64,000 nt of DNA, taken from positions 11,613 through 75,612 of the forward strand of contig CAXFAF010000002.1 in assembly GCA_964001285.1 (NCBI GenBank). Direction: 5' to 3'. Below, piece after piece: positions 6,122 to 63,898 of the stretch. The notes under the pieces were generated by a model. It saw nothing but the letters and a program-made list of their open reading frames with translations, made no database searches and had not been told where the DNA came from. The DNA is from an uncultured bacterium. Lineage in GTDB: Bacteria > Pseudomonadota > Alphaproteobacteria > MED-G09. Made by a program: the position numbers and the translations under genes. The stretch's first letter is position 1; the number at the start of each line of letters is the position of its first letter.

Positions 6122-7552
6122 ATGCCTAAGATTTCTTTAATACAAGATATAAAACAAAGTCAAAAAATGGCTTTGACACCTCAATTGCTCAAGGCAATCA
6201 AATTGCTTGAATTAAACAATATTGAATTAGACAATTATCTTGAAAAAGAAATCCTTGATAACCCTTTATTGGAGAAAGAAAATAATGATGAAGTTGATTT
6301 AAGAGATGATTCTTTATTAGATAGTGAAGATTTTAATGATGTGAAAGATAATGACTCAGATTTTTTTGAATATATTGGGGAGAGTGCACCTGTTTTCGAT
6401 ACAAGTAATTTATATGACAGTTCGAGTAGTAATAAAAAAATAAATAATGTTTTAGAGGAGACCTTGCCTTCAAAAAAAAGTCTATTCGAAAATATTTTAA
6501 ATCAAATAAATATAACTTTTGAAACTAAGATAGACCGACTTATTGCATCGGCAATATTAGAATTTATTGAACCTAATGGTTATTTGAAAGTATCTATAAA
6601 TGAGCTTTCGGCTGATTTGAATATTAGCCCACTAAAAATAGAAAAAATATTACTTACATTAAAGACTTTTGAGCCAGTAGGTATTTTTTCTCAGAATTTA
6701 GAGGAGTTTTTAGCAATCCAATTAAAAGAAATGGGTTATTTAGGTAAAACTACAAAAATTTTAATCAATAATCTATCTAAGTTAGCAACTGGTAATATTA
6801 ATTCTTTAGTAAAAGATTGTGGTGTTGAAAAAGATGTTGTTTTAAAAAAGTTGGATTATATAAAGAGATGTCAATCAGCTCCGATTGATATTAATGATTA
6901 TTTAAAAATTGAAACTTATCCGCCAGATATTATTGTTAAGAAAATAAAAAGTAATTGGATCGTAAGTTTAAATGAAGAGACGCTTCCAAAAGTAGTTGTT
7001 TTATTAGGATATTGGGAAGAATTATCAAAAAAGAAATTATCTAAGGATGATAAGAAATATCTTGCTTCAAATCTTATCTCTGGAAAGGGTATAGTTAAGG
7101 CTCTTGAGCAAAGAGCAGCCACAATCTTAAAGGTTTCAAATGCTATAATGAAAAGGCAGGTAAGGTTTTTAGAAGAAGGCATCATGTTTATAAAACCTTT
7201 AAAGTTAAAGGATATAGCAGAAGAATTGGATATTCATGAAAGTACTGTATCTCGTATTACAAATTCAAAAACAATATCAACACCACGTGGAACCTATGAG
7301 CTTAGATTCTTTTTCTCTACATCCTTAACTAGCTCAATGGATTTAGGCGGTTTATCTTCTAAAGTTGTGAAAGAAAAAATTTTACAACTTATAAATCATG
7401 AAGACATGAATGTTTTATCGGATAATAAATTATCGATTTTATTAAAAAGCCAAGGAATTAATGTTGCCAGGAGAACTGTCACGAAATATCGAGAAGAAAT
7501 GAATTTACCTCAATCACATAAGAGAAAAAGATTGAAACTATTAGCTGTTTAG
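6122..7552 (+). CDS. rpoN: RNA polymerase sigma-54 factor
   Basis: Region I QSQKMALTPQLLKAIKLL, HESTVSR HTH, RpoN box ARRTVTKYRE. Confidence 0.97.
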   Translation: MPKISLIQDIKQSQKMALTPQLLKAIKLLELNNIELDNYLEKEILDNPLLEKENNDEVDLRDDSLLDSEDFNDVKDNDSDFFEYIGESAPVFDTSNLYDSSSSNKKINNVLEETLPSKKSLFENILNQINITFETKIDRLIASAILEFIEPNGYLKVSINELSADLNISPLKIEKILLTLKTFEPVGIFSQNLEEFLAIQLKEMGYLGKTTKILINNLSKLATGNINSLVKDCGVEKDVVLKKLDYIKRCQSAPIDINDYLKIETYPPDIIVKKIKSNWIVSLNEETLPKVVVLLGYWEELSKKKLSKDDKKYLASNLISGKGIVKALEQRAATILKVSNAIMKRQVRFLEEGIMFIKPLKLKDIAEELDIHESTVSRITNSKTISTPRGTYELRFFFSTSLTSSMDLGGLSSKVVKEKILQLINHEDMNVLSDNKLSILLKSQGINVARRTVTKYREEMNLPQSHKRKRLKLLAV

Positions 7553-11173: not shown

Positions 11174-13116
11174 TAATTTTTGTTTTGTCGACTTTCAATT
11201 AACTCATCAACTACTGCTGGTTCTGCTAGCGTGGAGGTATCACCAAGATCTGAATAATCATTGGCAGCTATTTTTCTTAAAATCCTTCTCATTATTTTTC
11301 CAGATCTTGTTTTAGGTAAGTTTGGAGCAAATTGAATTAGGTCAGGACTCGCAATCGGACCTATTTCTTTTCTTACCCAAGCTACAAGACTCTTTCTTGT
11401 TTCATCATCCCCTTCTTCCCCCGAATTAAGCGTTACATAGGCATAAATACCTTGTCCTTTTATATCATGAGGATAACCAACTACAGCCGATTCAGAAACT
11501 TTTTCATGAGAGACAAGTGCGCTTTCTACTTCTGCTGTTCCCATTCTATGTCCAGAAACATTTATAACATCGTCGACTCTTCCTGTTATCCAGTAGTAAC
11601 CATCATCATCTCGTTTACATCCATCACCAGTGAAATAATAACCATTATATTGGCTAAAATAGGTTTCGATAAATCTTTTGTGGTCTCCATATACAGTTCT
11701 CATTTGTCCTGGCCAGCTGTCAGAGATACAAAGGTTTCCTTCATTCTTTCCTTTAAGTTCTTCACCTTCAGCATTAAGCAGAACCGGTTTTATTCCTGGT
11801 AAAGGCTTTGTTGCTGATCCCGGTTTAAGATCTGTAGCACCTGGAAGAGGGGATATTAAAGTTGCCCCTGTTTCCGTTTGCCACCATGTATCTACAATTG
11901 GACATTGACTCTCCCCAACAACATTATAATACCACATCCACGCTTCAGGATTTATAGGTTCACCAACTGTCCCTAGAAGTCTTAAGCTTGACCTTTTTGT
12001 TAATTTAACTGGTTCATCTCCTTCTTTCATAAGGGCTCTTATAGCTGTCGGAGCAGTATAAAAGATATTAACATTATGCTTGTCACAAACTTCCCAAAAT
12101 CTTGATGAAGTAGGATAGTTTGGGACTCCTTCAAACATTATAGTTGTTGCTCCATTAGATAATGGCCCATAGATTATATAAGAATGACCAGTAACCCAAC
12201 CTACATCAGCTGTGCACCAATAAATATCTCCATCGTGATAATCAAATATTATTTCATGAGTGTATGAAGAATAAACCATATATCCTCCAGTTGTATGAAG
12301 CACACCTTTTGGTTTACCTGTTGATCCGCTTGTATAAAGGATAAAAAGAGGGTCTTCAGCACTCATTTCTTCAGGGGGACAATTGTCATTTGTTGATTCT
12401 ATTGCTTCATGATACCAAACATCACGATCTTCTTTCATATTAATTTGTCCACCTGTTCTTTTAACTACAAAAACATTTTTAACTTTTGGACATTGTTCTA
12501 GGGCTTTATCTGAATTTTCTTTCAATGGAATTTTTTTTCCACCTCTAATTCCTTCGTCAGCAGTAATTAGGAAGTTTGATTCACAATCGAGAATTCTTCC
12601 AGCTAATGAATCAGGTGAAAATCCACCGAAAACAACTGAATGAACCGCTCCAATTCTTGAGCAAGCTAACATTGCATATGCCGCTTCGGGTATCATTGGC
12701 ATATAAATTGTTACTCTATCACCTTTTTGAACTCCATAATTTTTTAACATATTAGAGAATCTAGAGACTCTATGATGGAGTTCTTTATATGTTATTTTTA
12801 AAGAATCATTTGGATCATCGCCTTCCCATATAATAGCTATTTGATCTCCTTTATTTTCTAGATGTCTATCAATACAATTATAACTTGCATTAAGTGTTCC
12901 ATCGTAAAACCACTTAATATCAACATTTTTATTAGACCAAATGACATCTTTAATTTTAGTATAGGGTTTTATCCAATTAATTCTTTGGCCAATCTCTTTC
13001 CAGAATTCTTCAGGATTTTCTTCTGCAAACTTATAAGTTTCTTCATATGAATCTTTATTGATATGAGCTTTATCTTTAAAGTTTTTAAAAACAGGTATTT
13101 TTATTTCTTCGCTCAA
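11173..13116 (-). CDS. acs: Acetyl-CoA synthetase
   Basis: [43 protein letters not shown]; TTG start. Confidence 0.97.
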
Positions 13117-24678: not shown

Positions 24679-24694
24679 TGGCATCGAAATTGCT
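24679..24694 (+). promoter_or_regulatory. Sigma54 -24/-12 promoter of torF-amtB (TGGCATCGAAATTGCT)
   Basis: Exact TGGCAY-N5-TTGCW; predicted TSS near 24705, followed by SD AGGAGG and ATG 24730; upstream of an ammonium transporter. Confidence 0.88.
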
Positions 24695-24729: not shown

Positions 24730-25380
24730 ATGGTTATTTTAAAAAATATAAAAAATTATTCTGGAAAAATAGTTGTTGCTGTTTTTCTTGGTTTTGCAAC
24801 TGTTGGAACAACTTTTGCTGATTCATTAGAATGGAATATAGGAGCCACTAGTCAATATCTTTGGCGTGGTATGTCTCAAGGAAGCGGAGCAGCTGTACAA
24901 GGTGGTTTAGACTATTCTGCTGATAATGGATTTTCAATTGGCACTTGGGTATCCAATGTCGATTTTGGGGATGATACTACTTATGAATTAGATGGTTACT
25001 TTGGATATAGTATAGGTCCAGTTTCTTTAGGCTATATTTATTATGCTTATCCAGATGGTGATGATCTTGATTTTAGTGAAATTAGTATTAGTGCAGAAGT
25101 TGGCGCATTTACTTTTGGTGTTGCAGTTCTTGCAGATGCTGATTGGGAAGCCGATTTAGGTGATGATCCATATTTCTTTATTGATACTGGTTTTCCTATT
25201 AGAGAAGGTTTAGATCTTGGCCTTCATGTTGGGCATTATGATTATGAAGCTGGTGATGCTGAAACAGATTACGGACTTACCCTTAGCATTGGAGATTTTA
25301 GTTTTGGTATCATGGATAGTACCCGTGATGATAGTGATCCAAAATTTGTAATTTCTTACGGCGTTTCAGGAAGTTTGTAA
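24730..25380 (+). CDS. TorF-family putative outer-membrane porin (TIGR02001-like)
   Basis: Signal peptide, SQYLWRGMSQ, AVQGGLDY, GTWVSNVDF, ELDGYFGY; this family commonly precedes glnK-amtB. Confidence 0.85.
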   Translation: MVILKNIKNYSGKIVVAVFLGFATVGTTFADSLEWNIGATSQYLWRGMSQGSGAAVQGGLDYSADNGFSIGTWVSNVDFGDDTTYELDGYFGYSIGPVSLGYIYYAYPDGDDLDFSEISISAEVGAFTFGVAVLADADWEADLGDDPYFFIDTGFPIREGLDLGLHVGHYDYEAGDAETDYGLTLSIGDFSFGIMDSTRDDSDPKFVISYGVSGSL

Positions 25381-25410: not shown

Positions 25411-26697
25411 ATGAATATTTTAAAAAAACTACCCATATTTGGTTTAGTGTTAGCAATTTTAACTGGCAATGCATTTGCAGAAGTAAGTGAAGAATCTGCT
25501 TACATTTTCAATACTTTCTCATTTTTGGTGCATGGCTTTCTTGTTATGCTAATGGCTATGGGCTTCACATGTCTGGAAGCAGGTTTAGTTAGAAGTAAAA
25601 ATACTGCTGCAATTTGCCTTAAAAATGTAGGTTTATATAGTCTTGCTGGTATTATGTTTTATCTCGTTGGTTATGGTTTTATGTATAACGAGGTAAACGG
25701 ATTTATAGGACAGCCAACTTTATGGAATCCAGAAGCTGAAGTGAGTTCGGCAGATGGATATTCAAAAATGTCAGATTGGTTCTTTCAGATGGTTTTCTGT
25801 GCTACTGCAATGTCTATCGTTAGTGGAACTATTGCCGAAAGAATTAAGTTGGCGCCTTTCTTCATATTTGCTGTTATCTTAACTGGTATTATTTATCCTA
25901 TCCAAGGATCTTGGGTATGGGGCGGTGGTTTTCTAGCAGAAATGGGCTTCTCAGACTTTGCTGGATCTACACTTGTTCATTCAGTTGGTGGTTGGGCTGC
26001 ATTAATGGGCGCGATCATTATTGGCCCAAGGTTAGGTAAGTATTCATCAAGCGGTTCAGTTATAGCAATTCCTGGATCAAATTTACCACTTGCAACAATA
26101 GGTACATTTATACTCTGGTTTGGATGGTTCGGTTTCAACGGTGGATCACAATTAGCCCTTGGCAGTGCAGCAGACGCGGCAGCAATGGCAAATGTTTATG
26201 TTAACACTAATATGGCAGCATGCGGTGGACTAGTTGCAGCCATGACTTTAGCTTCAATTTTATACGGTAAAGTAGATCTAACTCTTGCCTTAAATGGAGC
26301 GCTTGCTGGGTTGGTCAGTATTACAGCAGGTCCAGATGTTGGAACTCCTCTACAAGCAATTTTAATTGGCGCAATAGGTGGAATATTATGTACTTTAGCT
26401 ATACCACTCCTTGATAAATTAAAAATAGATGATGTTGTTGGTGCCATTTCGGTTCATTTGGTGGCTGGTATATGGGGCACATTAGTTGTTGGAATACCAG
26501 GACTAAATGGTAGCGGTGACTTCATGACGCAATTATATGGTGTAGTTGCTATAGGTTTATTTGTTAGCATTGTTAGTGCTGTTGTTTGGTTTATTCTTAA
26601 AGCAACAGTAGGATTAAGACCTTCAGAAGAAGAAGAAATGATGGGATTAGATGTCTCTGAATTAGGTATGGAGGCTTATCCAGAATTTAGAAATTAG
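25411..26697 (+). CDS. amtB: Ammonium transporter
   Basis: FFQMVF, SIVSGTIAER, DFAGSTLVH, LWFGWFGFNGGS, NGALAGLVSITA, DDVVGAISVH (twin His). Confidence 0.96.
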   Translation: MNILKKLPIFGLVLAILTGNAFAEVSEESAYIFNTFSFLVHGFLVMLMAMGFTCLEAGLVRSKNTAAICLKNVGLYSLAGIMFYLVGYGFMYNEVNGFIGQPTLWNPEAEVSSADGYSKMSDWFFQMVFCATAMSIVSGTIAERIKLAPFFIFAVILTGIIYPIQGSWVWGGGFLAEMGFSDFAGSTLVHSVGGWAALMGAIIIGPRLGKYSSSGSVIAIPGSNLPLATIGTFILWFGWFGFNGGSQLALGSAADAAAMANVYVNTNMAACGGLVAAMTLASILYGKVDLTLALNGALAGLVSITAGPDVGTPLQAILIGAIGGILCTLAIPLLDKLKIDDVVGAISVHLVAGIWGTLVVGIPGLNGSGDFMTQLYGVVAIGLFVSIVSAVVWFILKATVGLRPSEEEEMMGLDVSELGMEAYPEFRN

Positions 26698-26765
26698 TCA
26701 TTCTGTTCTCCTCCCCATAATGATTTGACTAATTTACCACCGCGTTTTTTTAAGCGCGGTGGTTT
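26691..26765 (+). ncRNA. Candidate amtB 3'UTR-derived sRNA with anti-Shine-Dalgarno loop (cuckoo/alpha-r14/AbcR-like module)
   Basis: Perfect 10-bp inverted repeat AAATTAGTCA (26691-26700)/TGACTAATTT (26726-26735), inner stem TCATT/AATGA, apical loop TTCTCCTCCC, immediately followed by the terminator hairpin. Confidence 0.5.
26736..26765. terminator. Intrinsic terminator hairpin between convergent amtB and HCCA-isomerase-like genes, probably bidirectional
   Basis: ACCACCGCG (26736-26744)/CGCGGTGGT (26755-26763) GC-rich stem. Confidence 0.8.
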
Positions 26766-27350
26766 CTATTGTAGAGCTTCTTCAATAAAATCTAATCTAT
26801 CTTGACCAAAAAACATTTCTTCTCCAACAAAAATTGTTGGCGCTCCAAAAGCTCCTTTATTAACAGCTTCTTCTGTATTTTGAATTAAAAGATCCTTCAC
26901 TTTTTGATCAGAGACTCTATTCATAAAGTCTTCAGGATTAAATCCTCCATTAGTAAGGACTTCACCTATAATTTCTGGGTTATTCATATCTTTAGGGTTA
27001 ACCCACATAGCATCAAATATTGTATTTAAATAACCATTAAAATCACCTTCTAGCTGATATGAGATTGCTCCACGCATTAAGGCTAGAGTATTCACTGGAA
27101 AATAAGGATTATTTTGAAAAGGAACATCATATCTTTTGGCAAATCTAGGAAGATCTACACCATAATACGCTCCTTTTGCCGGAATAGCTGCAGGTGTTTG
27201 GTTACCAGTTGCTTTAAAAATACCACCCAATAGAACTGGTTTATATTCTAGTTCTGCAGAATTTCTTTCAGCAATTTTAGGAAGTTGTGTGGAAGCAAGA
27301 TATACTGTTGGACTTCCAAAATCAAAACAGAAGGTTATCTTTTTTGTCAT
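26766..27350 (-). CDS. 2-hydroxychromene-2-carboxylate isomerase-like (DsbA/GST-kappa family)
   Basis: FDFGSPTVY, PVLLGGIFK, GAFGAPT, FFGQDRL. Confidence 0.88.
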   Translation of the reverse strand: MTKKITFCFDFGSPTVYLASTQLPKIAERNSAELEYKPVLLGGIFKATGNQTPAAIPAKGAYYGVDLPRFAKRYDVPFQNNPYFPVNTLALMRGAISYQLEGDFNGYLNTIFDAMWVNPKDMNNPEIIGEVLTNGGFNPEDFMNRVSDQKVKDLLIQNTEEAVNKGAFGAPTIFVGEEMFFGQDRLDFIEEALQ

Positions 27351-61588: not shown

Positions 61589-61678
61589 AACTATATTGAG
61601 TCCACATCAAAAGAGAATCATCTTATTAATTAGCAATTATTTTTAATATTAATAACCATCTTTGTGGGGAGGATAAAT

Positions 61679-63898
61679 ATGAAATATATCAAATTCTTAC
61701 TAATTCTATTGTTAATGCCTAGTGTACAATCTTTTGCTCAAGCAGATGAAGGTACACAATTTTCTGGTTTAGAAGAAATAATTGTTACAGCTAGAAAAAG
61801 AGAGGAGCCGCTTCAAGAGACACCTGTTGCTGTTACAGCTTTAACTGAAGCTAAGCTTGATAAAATGTTTGCTACGGATCTACAAGATCTCGATATGCAA
61901 GTGCCAAATACTATAATAAGCAGGATTAGCTCTTTTAATAATTCTGTTTCGGTTTTTATGCGAGGAATAGGTAATACAGATATTGATTCAACCATTGATC
62001 CACCTGTAGCTATTTTTGTAGACGGAATTTATATTCCACGACCAAATAATAGTGCCATAGATATGTTCGATATTGAGCAAGTAGAAGTTATGCGTGGTCC
62101 TCAAGGAACTCTTTTTGGTCGAAACACTACAGCTGGTGCAATTCAATTTAGAACGAAAAGACCTACTGGCGAATTCGGAACTTCTGGTAGGATAACATTA
62201 GGTGAATACGGAAGACGTGATGTGCGTTTATCCGTTGAGTCTCCTTTAACAGATAACATCAGCGCCAAAATCTCTGTGCTCCAACAAAAATTTGATGGTT
62301 ATTATCAAATGAAAATAAAAAATCATCCTAGTTACGATGTAGGAGCTAGACATCCTTATGATGACAGAGGTCAGTTAAGAGACGCTGGTGGCGAAGATGT
62401 ATATGCTGTGAGACCTATTATTAAATTCAATCCAACGGAAAATTTTGAATTAACAATAATTGGTGAATACATAAAAGAAAGAAGTGATACAAGGCCACAG
62501 ATTAATACTTCTATACCTAGCCAAGTTTTAGCTAGAGTATACGGATTTCCCGGAGCTCCGTTTGGTGCAGAAAGAAGATATCTAGAAACAAATGTTTATT
62601 CTTTTATTAATGTTGATACCAAAGGTTTAACAGTTGAAGCAGTTTGGGAATTGGACAGTGGTACATTAACTTCAGTTAGTAACTGGCGTGAAACAGAGTA
62701 CCTGATGAGAGGTGAAGTTGACTGGACCACCGCACCAATGTTTGAAATTGTCCGTGATGAACCCCATGAGCAACAATCCACTGAATTAAGATATCAAACA
62801 AGTATTAATGATAGAACAGAGTTAGTCGCTGGTATCTATTATTTTGAACAAGATTACTTTCTCAGAAGAGATACTTACATTAATACATCCGGTGCTTTCA
62901 CTGCGCACATTATTGGCCTTACAAGTCAAAGCCATCAAAATATGGCGGTATTTGCTCAGGTTGACTATCAAATTAATGACAAGCTCGGGTTGACTGTTGG
63001 TGGTAGATATACAGAGGAAGAGAAAGATTTCATGCAAGCTCCTTTTGGCGTCACACCTGGTGCAAAGATCTACACAGATGATGAGTGGTCTAATTTTGGC
63101 CCCAAGGTAGGTCTTGACTATCAAATCAATGATGATGCTATGGTGTATGTGTCCTTATCAAGAGGTTTCAAAAGTGGAGGGTTTAATGGAAGAGGTGGAA
63201 CGCCTACAACATTAGGGCCTTTCGATGAAGAAACCGTTGATGCTTTAGAAATTGGCTTAAAAGCAGACTGGTGGGATAACAAACTAAGGACAAATGCAGT
63301 TATATTCCTTAATAGATATGAGGATCTTCAAAGAACTATCATTCGAAACTTGGTTAATTGTGGATGCCCAAATCCTCAGGAAACAGTTACTGATAACGCA
63401 GCTGAAGCTGAGATAAGTGGATTTGAATTGGAAATTGATTATGTGCCAAACGAGAATCTTAATTTAGGTCTAGCTCTAGCGTATACAGATGCAGGATATG
63501 AAGAGTTCTTCGCTGATTTAAATGGCTCTGGTACAGCTGTAGATAATTCAGGCTTACCTTTACAAAGAGCTCCTGAATGGCATGCGTTATTCCGATTTGA
63601 TTATACTGTCGATATGGATAGTGGCGCTGCTGTTACCTTAGGTGGTAATTATATGTACAGAAGTGAGCTTAATAACCATACAGCAGGGAATCCTTTGGCG
63701 AATGTCGGAGAAATTGACATTATAAATCTTCATCTCGACTATGTGCCGCCTTCCGGTAATTATAGAGTATCTTTATATGGTAAAAATGTAACTGATGAAA
63801 TTTATCAAACAAGTGCAACTCTTGTTGGAGCTCTTTTACATTTGAACGGCATTAGTGATCCAGCAAGATTTGGTATAGAAATCGGCTGGGACTTCTAA
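61679..63898 (+). CDS. TonB-dependent receptor
   Basis: Signal peptide, LEEIIVTARKREE, VEVMRGPQGTLFGRNTTAG, GFKSGGFN, C-terminal WDF; start moved to ATG 61679 after GGGGAGG. Confidence 0.95.
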   Translation: MKYIKFLLILLLMPSVQSFAQADEGTQFSGLEEIIVTARKREEPLQETPVAVTALTEAKLDKMFATDLQDLDMQVPNTIISRISSFNNSVSVFMRGIGNTDIDSTIDPPVAIFVDGIYIPRPNNSAIDMFDIEQVEVMRGPQGTLFGRNTTAGAIQFRTKRPTGEFGTSGRITLGEYGRRDVRLSVESPLTDNISAKISVLQQKFDGYYQMKIKNHPSYDVGARHPYDDRGQLRDAGGEDVYAVRPIIKFNPTENFELTIIGEYIKERSDTRPQINTSIPSQVLARVYGFPGAPFGAERRYLETNVYSFINVDTKGLTVEAVWELDSGTLTSVSNWRETEYLMRGEVDWTTAPMFEIVRDEPHEQQSTELRYQTSINDRTELVAGIYYFEQDYFLRRDTYINTSGAFTAHIIGLTSQSHQNMAVFAQVDYQINDKLGLTVGGRYTEEEKDFMQAPFGVTPGAKIYTDDEWSNFGPKVGLDYQINDDAMVYVSLSRGFKSGGFNGRGGTPTTLGPFDEETVDALEIGLKADWWDNKLRTNAVIFLNRYEDLQRTIIRNLVNCGCPNPQETVTDNAAEAEISGFELEIDYVPNENLNLGLALAYTDAGYEEFFADLNGSGTAVDNSGLPLQRAPEWHALFRFDYTVDMDSGAAVTLGGNYMYRSELNNHTAGNPLANVGEIDIINLHLDYVPPSGNYRVSLYGKNVTDEIYQTSATLVGALLHLNGISDPARFGIEIGWDF

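Follow-up and report, generated by a model that had tools for sequence, protein, structure and literature searches.

The window (the whole stretch of DNA analysed, about 64 kb) carries a torF-amtB operon on its plus strand. The first gene of the operon, at positions 24730–25380 (+), encodes a torF-like outer-membrane protein of 216 amino acids (Pfam Gcw_chp, 1.4e-15). It is followed at positions 25411–26697 (+) by amtB, which encodes an ammonium transporter of 428 amino acids (Pfam Ammonium_transp, E-value = 8e-110). The torF-amtB mRNA ends in a compact module: a hairpin (termed hairpin 1) that includes the amtB stop codon and is stacked on an intrinsic terminator. The apical loop of hairpin 1 displays a C-rich sequence that resembles an anti-Shine-Dalgarno (anti-SD) sequence.

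Plausible nitrogen-regulatory setting of the operon

The consensus used for sigma54-type sites is the −24/−12 pattern. A promoter-like site that matches it, TGGCAT-N5-TTGCT, is present at positions 24679–24694 (+), 51 nt 5′ of the torF start. In 15 of 19 genomes a site of this type occupies the corresponding position, and one of the four misses is due to a contig end. The pairing of torF with amtB is retained in 18 of 19 regions; the remaining region ends at a contig edge. Genome-wide, the promoter pattern shows 16 matches. Four of them are intergenic and upstream of a gene; these four include the torF site and a match 46 nt before a PII gene.

The genome encodes rpoN (at about positions 7055–7531 of the window), one strong sigma54 activator, Hfq and two PII proteins. 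Because of the promoter motif, the presence of rpoN, activator and PII genes, and the like promoter before a PII gene, torF-amtB plausibly belongs to an NtrC/sigma54 nitrogen regulon. An earlier note on this DNA had proposed that sigma54 drives the torF-amtB transcript, and the −24/−12 site together with rpoN and the sigma54 activator supports this in silico. The two PII genes rule out a host of the PII-less SAR11 type. It should be noted that the host genome also shows a serC-leader match and encodes many TonB-dependent receptors.

A consensus scan of positions 26300–26900 gave no sigma70-like promoter, where 1.8 are expected in shuffled sequences. With no such promoter in the last 400 nt of amtB, any short RNA from this region would probably come by processing. 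Seventeen RNA runs were listed, as contigs throughout, and they share at most 0.23 of the sequence words. Short assembled contigs of four metatranscriptome runs cover parts of torF, amtB and a dsbA-like gene; none spans positions 26640–26790, and contigs cannot show transcript ends.

A conserved hairpin and terminator at the amtB 3′ end

Hairpin 1 encompasses positions 26691–26735 (+). The sequence AAATTAGTCA (positions 26691–26700) pairs perfectly with TGACTAATTT (positions 26726–26735), forming a 10-bp stem that closes an apical loop of 25 nt. The first base of the hairpin is 4 nt ahead of the amtB stop, and the 5′ arm includes the last amtB codons and the TAG stop codon (positions 26695–26697). 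The loop contains UUCUCCUCCCCA, with CCTCCCCA at positions 26710–26717. The anti-SD-like motif is CUCCUCCCCA at positions 26708–26717 (+); it has the core CCUCC, is conserved, and is predicted to be single-stranded from its unpaired probability.

The intrinsic terminator is at positions 26736–26771 (+) and consists of a stem (positions 26736–26763) and a T-rich tail, TTCTATTG. The stem has 12 pairs, seven of them GC, and the terminator scan calls it on the plus strand only. The terminator loop is U-rich or GNRA-like among the homologues, and the gap between hairpin 1 and the terminator is 0–3 nt. The customary Hfq-binding module is single-stranded, and a hairpin that abuts the terminator departs from that arrangement.

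The perfect 10-bp stem rising from the last amtB codons, and the terminator that begins at the base right after the hairpin, had both been described in the earlier note and are borne out. RNA folding likewise finds the stable hairpin that was anticipated there: positions 26685–26775 fold as RNA with −29.5 kcal/mol (z = −7.5), and none of 200 dinucleotide shuffles is equally stable. Two further claims did not stand. The inner stem that had been drawn above the base helix shares TCA with the outer stem, retains only two pairs in the minimum free energy structure, and is unconserved among congeners. The C-run had been called unusual, but CTCCTCCC occurs once in the 64-kb window versus 0.74 expected, and at least once in 53 of 100 shuffles. 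Thus the element stands above chance because it is conserved, and not because of base composition.

Hairpin 1 and its open loop are retained in folds of 176 and 276 nt, i.e. with 100 or 200 nt of extra coding sequence. The amtB coding end also contains a GGAGG, at positions 26672–26676. This sequence is unused as a loop partner in the longer folds and is unconserved in genera 2 and 3, and local pairing of the loop with it is thus rejected.

When 60 relatives were searched at the DNA level, the amtB 3′ region was found in 19 of 24 same-family genomes. A covariance model of hairpin 1 and the terminator, built on 14 sequences, matches 20 of the 25 genomes of the family once each, a count in which the own genome is included; the order comprises the same 25 genomes. 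The matches come from all three genera, and each of them is at the 3′ end of amtB. In the other five genomes of the family the only Amt gene is a paralogue with 34% identity; the element is therefore found wherever the orthologous torF-amtB operon is found. In 149 other genomes sampled from the class there are two marginal model matches (E-values = 0.004 and 0.006), neither of them next to amtB. Among 80 metagenome loci listed with a loose pattern, three are true by the model, and all three follow a coding end of the form ...AYPEF(R/K)N*. A search of genome contigs with the AmtB protein yielded, among the at least 80 matches listed, distant Amt genes of many phyla and no orthologue.

The gene 3′ of the element varies among genomes, and the element therefore travels with amtB. 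The idea of an amtB-derived RNA had been made to depend on conservation of stem and loop downstream of orthologous amtB genes. This conservation is seen in all 20 genomes and in the three metagenome instances.

Pairing was counted on a model-guided alignment of 20 distinct sequences. (A MAFFT alignment misplaced hairpin 1, and RNAalifold applied to it recovered the terminator alone.) In the model-guided alignment 96.7% of the cells pair, as against 26%–50% when the partners are slid. All ten modelled terminator pairs form (100% paired) and six of the ten display compensatory changes. The GC-rich stem, the T-tract and the covariation of the stem are those of a Rho-independent terminator. Pairing in the base helix of hairpin 1 reaches 94.9%, and the helix is nearly invariant in sequence. 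One of its eight modelled pairs shows a compensatory change, A-U to G-C, in three genus-3 genomes that represent one lineage. Covariation, which the earlier note had looked to as a check, is thus evident in the terminator, but there is little of it in hairpin 1.

Several U-A to U.G changes are also present in the base helix of hairpin 1. On the minus strand these would be C.A mismatches, and the wobbles therefore indicate an RNA read from the plus strand. Above the base helix there are extra pairs that are genus-specific (UUUAC/GUAAA; GGUUU/AAACC; UUUU/AAAA). Regardless of genus, the C-rich motif is in the apical loop, with a predicted unpaired probability of 0.67–1.00 in all 20 homologues. 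Structure, strand, conservation, the exclusive link to amtB and the predicted accessibility of the loop are established computationally, as is the promoter motif of the operon.

The core CCUCC is found in 19 of the 20 aligned homologues; the remaining one (G012) has CUUCCCC. The loop variants are UCUCCUCCC in the own genome, ACCUCCCCCC in genus 2 and GCCUCCAC in genus 3. The elements of genera 1 and 3 have one C-rich hairpin loop each, and those of genus 2 have two. Counted from the start of the element, 26 nt that span the 5′ arm and the loop as far as CCCCA are identical at 26 of 26 positions in six congeners and at 23–25 of 26 in three more, and the 3′ half of the loop varies among homologues. 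Fourfold degenerate sites of amtB display 34%–48% identity between the own genome and 18 relatives (39%–43% for the six congeners) and are therefore saturated. The seed is more constrained than its surroundings, as is characteristic of 3′UTR-derived sRNAs. From these comparisons, the sequence of the loop, and not merely its shape, is under selection.

The constraint on the loop bears on an explanation in which the element acts only in cis. A 3′-end module of this kind would secure termination and shield the torF-amtB mRNA from 3′ exonucleases. Its C-rich loop would be the docking site of an RNA chaperone or a protein of the KH type, through which the stability of the mRNA would be set or be tied to translation termination at the stop codon inside the hairpin. 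The location of the amtB stop codon inside hairpin 1 in 19 of the 20 aligned homologues fits such a role, as do the stacking of the hairpin on a canonical terminator and the presence of a single copy that is strictly tied to amtB. However, a stabiliser requires shape alone, and here the loop is frozen while neutral sites are saturated and the inner stems vary by genus. In addition, in one homologue (G017) the stop codon is shifted upstream and yet the hairpin and its loop are retained, and a C-loop-binding protein is not known for the lineage. An exclusively cis-acting module is therefore considered rather unlikely, although it keeps more weight than pairing with the operon's own leaders or a DNA-level or minus-strand feature. 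The element is in either case a real, conserved and sequence-constrained RNA element.

Complementarity of the loop to ribosome-binding sites

The 16S rRNA 3′ end of two relatives is the usual ...GGAUCACCUCCUUU, and the core of the loop therefore mimics the anti-SD sequence. The loop sequence CCUCCCCA is complementary, base for base, to a UGGGGAGG motif present at the ribosome-binding sites (RBSs) of TonB-dependent receptor genes. The gene starts of the own genome (1218, set by a crude start rule) were ranked by their complementarity to the loop. At least three of the high-ranked non-receptor "leaders" are internal ATGs and not starts.

The best predicted target in trans is UGUGGGGAGGA at positions 61663–61673 (+), at the RBS of a TonB-dependent receptor gene (Pfam Plug and TonB_dep_Rec_b-barrel). 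The ATG is at position 61679, 5 nt away, and the duplex ranks 2 of 1218. By duplex energy, receptors occupy ranks 1, 2, 6, 12, 16, 20, 22, 25 and 33 of 1218 (the rank-1 gene was missed by the custom HMM and is a receptor by Pfam). A GGGGAG in SD position is found in eight genes, six of which are TonB-dependent receptors (six by the custom HMM, four also by Pfam). A run of 8 nt or more complementary to the loop, with G.U allowed, is present in 6 of 22 receptors versus 12 of 1196 other genes (Fisher p = 2.7e-7), a p-value that, like the other enrichment values for this category, is post hoc, since the receptors first stood out in the ranking and the test followed. With the 16S anti-SD, receptors are not preferred in this way: a run of 6 nt or more occurs in 1 of 22 receptors versus 126 of 1196 other genes. 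Complementarity and enrichment are observations made by computation. They display in silico two features of the sX13-like class of RNAs, i.e. an unpaired apical C-run and G-rich RBS motifs in a subset of mRNAs.

GGGGAG(G) recurs among 76 receptor leaders of relatives, in all three genera. Three congeners each have one receptor leader with a perfect 10–11-nt match to the loop of that same congener. Genomes that lack torF-amtB, e.g. G014 (96% completeness), also have G-rich receptor leaders, and the leader motif is therefore independent of the amtB element. When loops and the 76 receptor leaders were compared within and across genera, no clean co-variation was found. The genus-3 loop fits the receptors of its own genus worst: its mean duplex energy is −11.2 kcal/mol, and the other loops reach −13.7 to −14.5 kcal/mol.

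At least one further conserved hairpin has a similar C-rich loop; a second C-loop RNA of this kind is placed at about positions 26430–26520 of C16 in genome G000. That other hairpin could be the actual regulator of the receptor leaders.

A loop of this type may also have its partner on the same mRNA. In the icaR mRNA of Staphylococcus aureus, as described in PMC3868564, a C-rich anti-SD motif in the 3′UTR pairs with the mRNA's own 5′UTR. The amtB element shares with icaR the C-rich anti-SD motif in a bacterial 3′UTR. By this precedent the loop would pair with the SD of torF (or of amtB), either within its own mRNA or on a sister mRNA, and limit translation of its own operon. The torF SD is strong and conserved (UAGGAGGU in genus 1), it is complementary to the CCUCC core, and the torF leader duplex ranks 69 of 1218. 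Unlike the pairing in icaR (PMC3868564), however, complementarity to the leaders of the own operon is by the SD core alone. These 5–6 nt are common to about 6% of genes and are not extended into the flanks in any genus, i.e. the extended complementarity to the own RBS region that marks the icaR type is absent. The amtB leader ranks 539 of 1218, and the conserved CCCCA/ACA flank of the loop fits receptor leaders and not torF. Autoregulation of this type is thus improbable.

A feature of the DNA or of the minus strand (a protein-bound inverted repeat, a terminator that works in both directions and serves the convergent dsbA-like gene as well, or an SD with a four-codon mini-ORF, GGGGAGGAGAA-N5-ATG ACT AAT TTC TAA) is very improbable: the minus strand does fold stably (−23.6 kcal/mol, z = −4.1) and its loop resembles an SD followed by ATG, but this fold is weaker than that of the plus strand, the U.G wobbles would become mismatches, the terminator has no T-tract on the minus strand, genera 2 and 3 do not retain the mini-ORF, and the downstream gene varies while the element remains at amtB.

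Relation to known RNAs and possible role

A search of the 64-kb window against Rfam gave no match at the gathering score. At E-values up to 10, positions 26500–26900 show eight weak matches, none of them to cuckoo, alpha-r14 or alpha-r15, and the best has 20.4 bits versus a gathering score of 90. The element is a new, well-defined and conserved RNA motif that is missing from Rfam, and this is so even if it acts in cis alone.

AbcR1/2 and NfeR1 of the Rhizobiales are sRNAs with anti-SD-type loops that silence nutrient-uptake mRNAs, and NfeR1 is nitrogen-responsive. These are independent sRNA genes, in contrast to the amtB element, which is part of a 3′UTR and has no Rfam match.

Pairing of C-rich loops with G-rich RBSs is an established class of mechanism (PMC3771888, PMC4615179). 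Cuckoo RNAs, as described in PMC4615179, have two to four adjacent hairpins, each displaying CCUCCUCCC in its loop, and this alphaproteobacterial family includes CcsR (RSs0680; see also PMC8034643). The amtB element resembles the cuckoo RNAs described there in its anti-SD-like hairpin loop, which in the own genome agrees with CCUCCUCCC in 8 of 9 letters, and in its alphaproteobacterial host. It differs in that the motif is on one hairpin (genera 1 and 3), is lost in genera 2 and 3, and stands in the context of an amtB 3′ end (compared with PMC4615179). The kinship with cuckoo, alpha-r14 and alpha-r15 RNAs that had been suggested for this hairpin is thus not upheld: there is no Rfam match, and one motif hairpin instead of two to four.

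A closer parallel to the seed is sX13 of Xanthomonas, in which, according to PMC3771888, C-rich apical loops pair with G-rich (4G) motifs at or near the RBSs of a set of mRNAs. The apical unpaired C-run of the amtB element is likewise complementary to G-rich RBS motifs, and these are present in a minority of genes. In contrast, sX13 as described there has a gene of its own and three C-rich loops; the amtB element has one loop (two in genus 2) inside a 3′UTR, and its predicted targets are mostly receptors (PMC3771888).

The parallel in origin is GlnZ, an sRNA of the glnA 3′UTR in Enterobacteriaceae (PMC9731577; bioRxiv 10.1101/2022.04.01.486790). GlnZ is described as NtrC-controlled, as using the terminator of its mRNA, and as tying nitrogen status to carbon metabolism (PMC9731577). 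The amtB element occupies a comparable position. It is located in the 3′UTR of a nitrogen-assimilation mRNA and shares the terminator of its parent, as do 3′UTR-derived sRNAs. It differs from GlnZ as described in its amtB parent, its marine alphaproteobacterial lineage and its C-rich seed in a hairpin loop; there is no sequence or Rfam kinship between the two, and the amtB element is a candidate known from sequence. A search of the literature covered here found no amtB 3′UTR RNA. In the main text of Meyer 2009 (PMC2704228), the Pelagibacter amtB entry is an upstream region only. By analogy with the RNAs described in these sources, the element would be a new candidate, GlnZ-like in origin and sX13-like in its seed logic.

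The reading that is tentatively preferred here, with a confidence a little short of even, is that the element is a base-pairing riboregulator, located on the amtB mRNA or cut from it, that occludes G-rich RBSs, chiefly those of receptors. Nitrogen limitation would induce transcription of torF-amtB, probably by sigma54 and NtrC, and the module would be made each time. It may act as the tail of the mRNA, or as a fragment of about 75–80 nt that may be cleaved off near the stop codon. The unpaired CCUCC(C/A) loop would then pair in vivo with G-rich RBSs and keep translation from starting there, although the direction of regulation may be otherwise. The top predicted targets encode TonB-dependent outer-membrane receptors, and (U)GGGGAG(G) is found in the leaders of these mRNAs. 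Several points weigh against this reading: genomes without torF-amtB also have G-rich receptor leaders, loops and leaders do not co-vary cleanly, another hairpin has a similar loop, covariation in hairpin 1 is scarce, and the hairpin abuts the terminator.

A more specific proposal is that the amtB mRNA tail is a dedicated riboregulator which shuts down or retunes the receptor set by means of the CCUCCCCA loop acting on UGGGGAGG RBSs. This proposal is doubtful, though not far-fetched, and if true it would have several consequences. The receptor leaders show odd G-runs that give no better pairing with the 16S anti-SD; these would be explained as existing for addressing by C-loop RNAs. The element would be the first regulatory RNA to derive from amtB, and this gene would join the short list of nitrogen genes with regulatory mRNA tails (glnA/GlnZ). 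Ammonium scavenging would be coupled post-transcriptionally to the uptake of carbon-rich substrates in abundant, streamlined marine alphaproteobacteria. An RNA of about 75 nt on an existing operon would thus link nitrogen status to the outer-membrane uptake repertoire, a very economical form of carbon/nitrogen cross-talk.

Variants of the amtB element in related genera

The amtB element, consisting of a hairpin with a C-rich loop (window positions 26691–26735) followed by an intrinsic terminator (26736–26763), takes a different form in genus 2 and in one genome of genus 3. In the genus 2 homologues (L122–L125, L129 and L131) the loop of the terminator is also C-rich (CUCUCCCCCAGAG, UAUCCCCUG), thus the genus 2 element displays two adjacent C-rich loops. 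G017, a genus 3 genome, shows an amtB reading frame (locus L128) that stops about 25 nt earlier, which places the stop codon outside of the hairpin. The hairpin, its loop and the terminator are retained despite this earlier end of the frame.

The minus strand of the loop region (window positions 26701–26724) displays a Shine-Dalgarno (SD)-like run, GGGGAGGAGAA, followed by a mini open reading frame of four codons, ATG ACT AAT TTC TAA. The run and mini open reading frame are not kept in the homologues of genera 2 and 3. This reading is probably a mere mirror image of the plus-strand amtB element.

Sigma54-type sites and torF leaders

The rpoN gene is found in the same window as the amtB element, at positions ~7055–7531. 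A second sigma54-type promoter-like site, TGGCAT-N5-TTGCT, is present on contig C4 of the organism's own genome (position 7317), 46 nt upstream of a PII gene. In the torF leaders of genus 2 (L182–L185, L189 and L191), a small hairpin (UGCGAUUUCGCA / UGCGAAUUACGCA) is conserved downstream of the sigma54-type promoter and ahead of the torF SD sequence; this hairpin is absent from the genus 1 torF leaders.

A second candidate small RNA and other hairpins

A second candidate small RNA, possibly encoded on the minus strand of contig C16 (positions ~26430–26520; locus L192:200–330, minus), adjoins the 16S gene in divergent orientation. The first of its two hairpins shows covariation; the second, GGUUUAUAAGU[loop]AAUGUAAACC, resembles a terminator and is followed by a U-run. 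The loop of the second hairpin (CUCCCCAUAAAG) has 10 letters in common with the amtB loop. An alignment of the region covers 16 of the 25 family genomes, counting the organism's own (E-value = 2.4e-5 or less), and an Rfam search with the candidate RNA gave no match. Alternatively, this sequence may be a portion of the rRNA leader rather than a small RNA.

Strong hairpins with C-rich loops are also seen on the minus strand in apparently non-coding DNA of contigs C29 (~12190–12240, loop GAGGCCUCCCCAAAUU) and C20 (~26060–26130, loop CUUCCCCACUCCCAAACCC); C29 also bears three receptor genes. A serC leader (RF00517; 63.5 bits, E-value = 3.5e-13) is located ahead of the next gene on contig C31 (~483–534; locus L195:184–235), and in it an SD-like GAGGAG is paired with a C-rich strand of the leader.

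Ribosome-binding sites of the receptor genes

The G-rich ribosome-binding sites of TonB-dependent receptor genes give no gain in pairing with the 16S anti-SD sequence. Examples are at window positions 61663–61673 and 59290 onward, and at C3:70676, C20:19913, C6:37408 and C12:25589–28120, among others. These unusually G-rich sites, (U)GGGGAG(G) or G6–8, are found in all three genera of the family.
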